Source: Escherichia coli
GTDB lineage: Bacteria > Pseudomonadota > Gammaproteobacteria > Enterobacterales > Enterobacteriaceae
Direction: 5' to 3' (one strand)
DNA: 64,000 nucleotides
Assembly (NCBI RefSeq): GCF_044324785.1
Contig: NZ_CP172127.1
Shown here: piece after piece, positions 44,963-45,149 of the stretch
Position numbering within the stretch: the first letter of the stretch is position 1
Layout of the letters: each line of letters starts with the position of its first letter
The notes under the pieces: generated by a model
Told to the model about the DNA's origin: nothing
What the model saw: only the letters and a program-made list of their open reading frames with translations
Database searches by the model: none
Translations under genes and position numbers: made by a program

Positions 44963-45110
44963 AGGCTCCTTTTAGTTGCAAAGGTTGTGCTGAATGAAGA
45001 TAAAAAGAGGCAACTTATTGCTCTGAATATAGTGCGTGAGGAGATGAATAAATATCAAAAATCGCTCAATATGCCCGTGTGGGTGGATATATGTGGCGCG
45101 GGTTGCGATA

Positions 45111-45136
45111 ACAGGGCAAGTTTCGCCCTGTTTTTA
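45111..45136 (+). terminator. orphan plus-strand intrinsic-terminator-like hairpin between elaD and rbn (both minus strand)
   Basis: ACAGGGC-AAGTTTC-GCCCTGT followed by TTTTT on the plus strand only; no plus-strand gene ends upstream of it. Confidence 0.45.
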
Positions 45137-45149
45137 GTAGTAAGCAGAG

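Follow-up and report, generated by a model that had tools for sequence, protein, structure and literature searches.

The 187-nt spacer that separates elaD from rbn in Escherichia coli raises a question of strand. In the stretch of DNA analysed here (64,000 nt, hereafter the window), this spacer holds a GC-rich hairpin followed by a run of five T residues on the plus strand, and the genes on either side are both encoded on the minus strand. The initial annotation took the hairpin for an orphan plus-strand terminator, and suggested that it could mark an unannotated small RNA or cis-antisense transcript, or else be a relic. From the evidence presented below, the hairpin is most likely the 3'-terminal stem-loop of the rbn mRNA, of the Rho-terminated type. 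Gene-end stem-loops of Rho-dependent transcripts have already been described, and the element is already known in kind.

The window derives from E. coli: over a 501-nt query around the hairpin, identity is 100% with strain N3 and 95-99% with nearly all other complete E. coli genomes. The flanking genes, named by identity to annotated E. coli genomes, are rbn and elaD, and their common minus-strand orientation was correctly recognized. The plus strand of the window corresponds to the minus strand of MG1655, and window position p corresponds to position 2382525 + (45150 - p) of NC_000913.3. K-12 coordinates were transferred through a gap-free alignment of the spacer between the window and K-12, in which the hairpin and the first 14 nt downstream are identical and the first K-12 difference falls at window position 45095. 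All transcript evidence discussed here comes from K-12, and none of it from the strain of the window. The features of the region are collected in Table 1.

Table 1. Coordinates, in the window, of the features of the rbn-elaD region
Feature	Position	Strand	Basis or remark
elaD (ElaD/SseL-family deubiquitinase)	43739..44962	-	ORF and identity to annotated E. coli genomes
Rho-termination region, antisense-elaD RNA	~44911	+	K-12 2382764(-); precedes the hairpin by ~220 nt on this strand
Candidate promoter TTGCAA-17 nt-GATAAA	44976..45004	+	Weak, unconserved; absent from promoter-scan calls
Rho (bicyclomycin-sensitive) termination region peak, rbn-elaD spacer	~45033	-	K-12 2382642(+); coarse resolution
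C-rich, G-poor tract, candidate rut site	45070..45109	-	17 C and 6 G in 40 nt, directly past the hairpin
rbn mRNA 3' terminus (mapped from K-12)	45104..45107	-	PMC10687069, Supplementary Data 2, 3, 4
Stem-loop, rbn mRNA 3' end (probable)	45110..45132	-	Sequence, folds, drawing in TRS Supplementary Data 3
T5 run in GTTTTTA	45131..45135	+	Sequence; invariant in 26 hairpin-bearing loci and the window
rbn (RNase BN/Z) CDS	45150..46067	-	Stop codon 45150-45152; ORF and PGAP annotation of identical strain N3 and K-12

The hairpin and its T run are borne out by the sequence, the limits first given (45111-45136) being about 1 nt off. On the plus strand, the stem halves AACAGGGC (45110-45117) and GCCCTGTT (45125-45132) enclose the loop AAGTTTC (45118-45124), giving an 8-bp stem and a 7-nt loop. 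On the minus strand, the form AACAGGGCGA-AAC-UUGCCCUGUU gains two extra pairs and becomes a 10-bp stem, including one G-U pair, closed by a triloop. The predicted free energies are -15.2 kcal/mol on the plus strand (z = -2.98) and -14.6 kcal/mol on the minus strand (z = -4.36), the z score being more extreme on the minus strand. The T5 run is the complement of an A5 tract that, in the rbn orientation, directly precedes the stem. The signature of an intrinsic terminator, a GC-rich stem-loop followed by a U-tract, was rightly placed on the plus strand, where it can be read either as a 6-bp GC core with U5 or as an 8-bp stem with U3, and the rbn strand carries only UUAUCGCAA past the stem. Hairpin and T5 together are no chance feature. 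Perfect hairpins of 8 bp or more number 18 in the window, whereas first-order Markov simulations gave 5.3 +/- 2.4; a T5 run adjoins four of the 18, where 0.03 would be expected. The other three (13122-13143, 14796-14822 and 19097-19123) are presumably ordinary gene terminators. A terminator scan of both strands did not call the hairpin site, probably owing to extension of the stem through A-U pairs, which leaves only 4 T in the 8-base tail window. In addition, a second minus-strand hairpin with U5, at about 45023-45000, was considered and discarded as weak (-3.8 kcal/mol, z = -0.6), with only U4 in K-12.

The orphan status of the hairpin fails when RNA 3' ends are considered. The stem starts 17 nt past the stop codon of rbn and lies along the transcriptional axis of this gene, and the K-12 terminus assigned to the hairpin lies on the strand opposite to the one initially proposed. 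In the TRS/RNAtag-seq data (PMC10687069), this MG1655 terminus, labelled 'rbn, Primary', spans 2382564-2382573(+). Its dominant positions, 2382568 and 2382571, correspond to window positions 45107 and 45104 and fall 3-7 nt beyond the stem. The terminus reaches significance in three RNAtag-seq replicates (adjusted p = 6.6e-10, 1.1e-11 and 2.1e-5) and appears again in the matched RNAtag-seq/term-seq tables, with a 3' UTR of 47 nt; moreover, Supplementary Data 3 of the same study draws the hairpin (-14.6 kcal/mol) upstream of it (PMC10687069). By SMRT-Cappable-seq, b2268 (rbn) is a one-gene transcription unit with a start site at 2381581.

Several features on the rbn strand point to Rho as the factor that ends transcription. 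The sequence past the stem (UUAUCGCAACCC / UUAUCGCAA) is without a U-tract and belongs to a C-rich, G-poor tract whose excess of C over G ranks in the top 0.6% among 40-nt windows across the 64 kb; in an 80-nt span it amounts to +15, at the 98.8th percentile. Supplementary file 2 of Adams et al. 2021 (PMC7815308) gives a Rho score of 3.24 (p = 5.1e-5) at 2382642(+), a peak about 75 nt past the hairpin and before elaD. These measurements were made over 800-nt windows (PMC7815308) that take in elaD, a gene that bicyclomycin could de-repress independently; the signal on the rbn strand is modest, and de-repression of this AT-rich gene, instead of transcripts running on from rbn, could account for it wholly or in part. 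In their curated Term-seq list, the same authors have no 3' end here on either strand (PMC7815308), an absence of low weight because rbn is weakly expressed.

These features resemble a class of message ends described by Dar & Sorek 2018 (PMC6061677), in which Rho-dependent transcripts end just past stable stem-loops without U-runs, rut sites lie directly downstream and the stems guard against PNPase and RNase II. As in that class, the rbn message has a stable stem-loop just past its stop codon and a 3' end a few nucleotides beyond the stem, without any U-rich stretch, and the stem is followed by a C-rich, G-poor tract; the modest bicyclomycin-sensitive signal beyond it may be a further point of agreement. 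The case of rbn differs in two respects: here Rho dependence and exonuclease trimming are deduced, and the hairpin has an upstream A5, so that its complement resembles a canonical terminator. Under this model, RNA polymerase moving along the minus strand would pass the rbn stop codon and make the GC-rich stem-loop shortly afterwards. Intrinsic release at the stem would be inefficient on this strand because no U-tract follows it. Rho would then load on the C-rich, G-poor tract and end transcription within the approximately 150 nt before elaD, and 3'-to-5' exonucleases would trim the transcript back to the base of the stem, which would protect the message and leave a sharp steady-state 3' end 3-7 nt past it. 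In this scheme, both the termination of rbn transcripts by Rho, rather than by weak intrinsic termination, and the trimming to the stem are what we infer from these features, and the same rbn 3' end could alternatively come from weak intrinsic termination at the hairpin. A point against a reading centred on rbn is that the textbook terminator signature, with its U5, is on the other strand.

The distribution of elaD bears on the history of the element. The [G + C] content is 35% in elaD versus 51% in rbn, and some 940-985 of 5,421 E. coli genomes lack elaD. The boundary between presence and absence lies inside the last ~20 nt of rbn, and the hairpin therefore belongs to the elaD haplotype. These nucleotides differ between the two haplotypes (45150-45175 in the window; L002:3001-3030; L008), and the C-terminus of Rbn ends in ...TVFNV in elaD-carrying strains versus ...AVFSI in strains without elaD. 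Strain AREA_504 is a mosaic in which AVF-type codons precede an rbn end of the elaD type, the hairpin comes next and elaD is reduced to a 111-nt remnant, which suggests recombination within the 3' end of rbn. In the elaD-less APEC IMT5155 and Escherichia sp. MOD1-EC7003, rbn is convergent with yfbK, about 120 nt apart, and a different strong REP-like hairpin lies between the two genes; thus, each haplotype gives rbn a 3' stem-loop. In two strains with IS1-associated deletions, part or all of elaD is gone and the hairpin is still attached to rbn, which, like the stem-loop of the elaD-less haplotype, favours the rbn reading. The IS1 lies at essentially the same point in these unrelated strains, B2C (Viet Nam) and 200088 (Mali), at about 45097-45099, or some 11-13 nt beyond the hairpin in the direction of rbn transcription. 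The adjoining deletions differ, B2C having lost elaD through yfbO and 200088 the 5' end of elaD (L001:2248-2999 and L013:788-1500), and the shared point could be a hot spot or a shared ancestral insertion.

Sequence variation was examined in 26 hairpin-bearing loci and the window, with 12 intact spacer haplotypes aligned. The A5-stem-loop is near-invariant in this set, with 2 of 23 hairpin positions varying. This is approximately the same proportion as in the 187-nt spacer, where it was estimated by eye; conservation of the hairpin does not exceed that of the remaining spacer, and population variation is without statistical power here. The sole stem substitution, found in Ec-2977, leaves a G-U pair in the rbn-strand stem and creates a C-A mismatch on the plus strand. 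As one event, it is only a hint that the rbn-strand stem may be the favoured one.

Other particularities were observed at the far end of elaD. The yfbK gene, about 1.7 kb long in K-12 and convergent with elaD, is almost wholly deleted in the window, where its last ~150 nt remain at about 43520-43672 (within 43349-43738); a similarly short elaD-to-yfbL spacing is found in other public contigs (L015, L019 and L021). A near-perfect 15-bp palindrome, TTCGACCAGTCAGCA / TGCTGATTGGTCGAA (43689-43722), lies between the elaD stop and the yfbK remnant and is perfect in K-12. It is probably a bidirectional terminator of the convergent elaD/yfbK pair, and draws spurious Rfam matches to microRNAs and snoRNAs. 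The ElaD protein of the window (43739-44962) is only 88% identical to that of K-12 and carries two small indels, an unusual degree of divergence within E. coli, and PGAP tags elaD as 'frameshifted' in the identical strain N3 despite an intact 407-aa ORF.

Several alternative explanations for the hairpin were weighed. The small RNA or cis-antisense transcript initially envisaged fares differently in its two parts: antisense RNA over elaD does exist in K-12 (PMC7815308), but a small-RNA gene, with its weak and polymorphic promoter, its lack of Rfam match and of a 3' end in the tables consulted, is not supported. Such a gene would produce an unannotated RNA of about 125 nt, starting near 45011, a few nucleotides past GATAAA (44999-45004), with TTGCAA (44976-44981, present in the sequence as claimed) as its -35, and ending at the hairpin and T5. 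This is very unlikely, despite the terminator-like end on the plus strand and a genomic SELEX peak of the RpoD holoenzyme in the rbn-elaD spacer, since the authors of that study assigned the peak to the elaD strand (PMC3946193). The promoter, sole candidate for a start of its own, matches 8 of 12 consensus positions, and its -10, GATAAA, is without the conserved final T. It is also polymorphic, the -10 reading GATGAA in K-12, Ec-2977 and M9682, and the -35 reading TCGCAA in Ec-2977, and the promoter scan called no plus-strand site in the spacer. The Cappable-seq supplementary tables consulted have no entries in the spacer interval. Neither 45000-45145 (z = -1.78) nor the whole spacer (z = -0.61) has a remarkable plus-strand fold. 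An Rfam scan of 43500-46500 at a permissive E-value returned noise only, the best match of the hairpin being 13.6 bits to Chloroflexus-1 (E = 2.6), and the MG1655 annotation has no RNA gene in the spacer. No matching 3' end is found among the TRS entries listed or in the Adams list (PMC10687069, PMC7815308), and in the collections searched the spacer occurs only in elaD-carrying E. coli chromosomes, which leaves it without deeper conservation. The proposed geometry, an opposite-strand transcript in the spacer of two co-directional genes, is like that of SraG, a described small-RNA gene on the opposite strand between rpsO and pnp (PMC5029454); unlike in the case of SraG, the candidate promoter here is weak and polymorphic, and no evidence of a transcript was found. 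The same SELEX study offers another reading, in which the sequence is a promoter element of elaD: Shimada et al. 2014 list TTAAAA-18-TGTTAT for rbn > elaD (PMC3946193), a string that maps exactly onto the K-12 hairpin and, on the elaD strand, overlaps the A-tract, the stem-loop and the first bases past the stem. We consider this improbable, as the string is a sequence pick within a low-resolution binding peak and has no mapped start, its -10 (TGTTAT) is without the conserved A at position 2, its -35 reads CTAAAA in the window, and the TRS table has no start site of Thomason et al. 2015 within 150 nt upstream of the rbn terminus (PMC10687069). As a relic, the hairpin would be what remains of the terminator of a plus-strand gene that the elaD island once held and has since lost. 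This would fit with a hairpin that travels with the elaD haplotype and with a U-run on a strand without a gene. It is hardly credible, however: the position of the hairpin next to rbn is invariant in every elaD-carrying haplotype examined, the hairpin is in documented current use as the rbn 3' end, and the plus strand has no remnant ORF or homology, its 76-aa ORF (44930-45160) passing through the hairpin, on which ground we also discarded this ORF as a gene terminated there. Nor was a donor context found, Salmonella SseL being 26% identical to ElaD and encoded at another locus, next to glpC; for the same reasons, Salmonella sseL was set aside as uninformative for comparison of the spacer. ElaD peptide patterns retrieved no relative from the genome contigs, and a degenerate pattern of the Rbn C-terminus matched there only Escherichia sp. 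MOD1-EC7003, with the elaD-less yfbK/rbn arrangement, and an unrelated Pararhizobium. The spacer has no match in phages, and its 'plasmid' matches were dismissed, as they mostly look like E. coli chromosomal sequence filed as plasmids.

The likeliest of the alternatives adds a function to the probable rbn 3' end rather than replacing it. Besides ending the rbn message, the hairpin with its U5 might act as a bidirectional, or backstop, terminator, stopping plus-strand antisense transcripts before they enter rbn; we regard this as tentative. Such transcripts could start inside the AT-rich elaD, where the promoter scan called a promoter-like plus-strand site (44690-44719), or read through from the yfbK side. 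In K-12, antisense-elaD RNA does arrive from this direction, with 274 reads in 800 nt: without bicyclomycin (BCM), 274 reads were counted upstream and 21 downstream, and with BCM 503 and 139 (p = 7.6e-9; PMC7815308). The RNA drops 13-fold around the 5' end of elaD and BCM relieves only part of this drop. In a rough calculation, which is suggestive only, 139/503 = 0.28 = 225/800, the fraction expected if the antisense RNA of BCM-treated cells ran exactly to the U5 and stopped there. The plus-strand fold (-15.2 kcal/mol) followed by U5, and the approximately 100-fold enrichment over chance of hairpin and T5 combinations in the window, also favour an active terminator. Against this, termination of the antisense RNA has been published as Rho-dependent, at a point some 220 nt short of the hairpin, and no RNA 3' end at the U-run (MG1655 2382535-2382545, minus strand) is present among the TRS entries listed, which include none at 238252x-238255x on the minus strand, or among the curated 3' ends of Adams et al., expression being low (PMC10687069, PMC7815308). 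Furthermore, the full 8-bp stem leaves only 3 U unpaired, and the Ec-2977 variant weakens the stem of the plus-strand RNA only. The hairpin shares with canonical and bidirectional intrinsic terminators a GC-rich stem, a short loop and, on one side, an A-tract whose complement is a U-tract. Ju et al., in 2019, are said to have described bidirectional terminators by SEnd-seq. It differs from these classes in that it has a U-tract on one strand only, its U-tract strand has no gene to terminate and the mapped 3' end is on the U-less strand. It is conceivable, if doubtful, that the hairpin came in with the AT-rich elaD island as a boundary element working in both directions: it would cap and stabilise the rbn message, and its U5 would serve as a fail-safe intrinsic terminator for antisense transcription, generated or received by elaD, that escapes Rho, before it collides with transcription of rbn.

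The evidence for the most part does not support reading this locus as an orphan terminator or hidden small RNA, even though elaD does have antisense transcription in K-12. The main value of the result is a correct annotation, with little importance beyond it. It also carries a caution for scans based on sequence only, as a U-run on the 'wrong' strand does not necessarily make a hairpin an orphan: the ends of messages released by Rho are marked by stem-loops lacking a U-run, and where an A-tract precedes such a stem, the complementary strand imitates an intrinsic terminator. Blocking of antisense transcription is a possible, secondary and putative function of the hairpin. If true, it would add another case in which terminators shield core genes from the spurious transcription of AT-rich DNA acquired horizontally, a role already established in outline.
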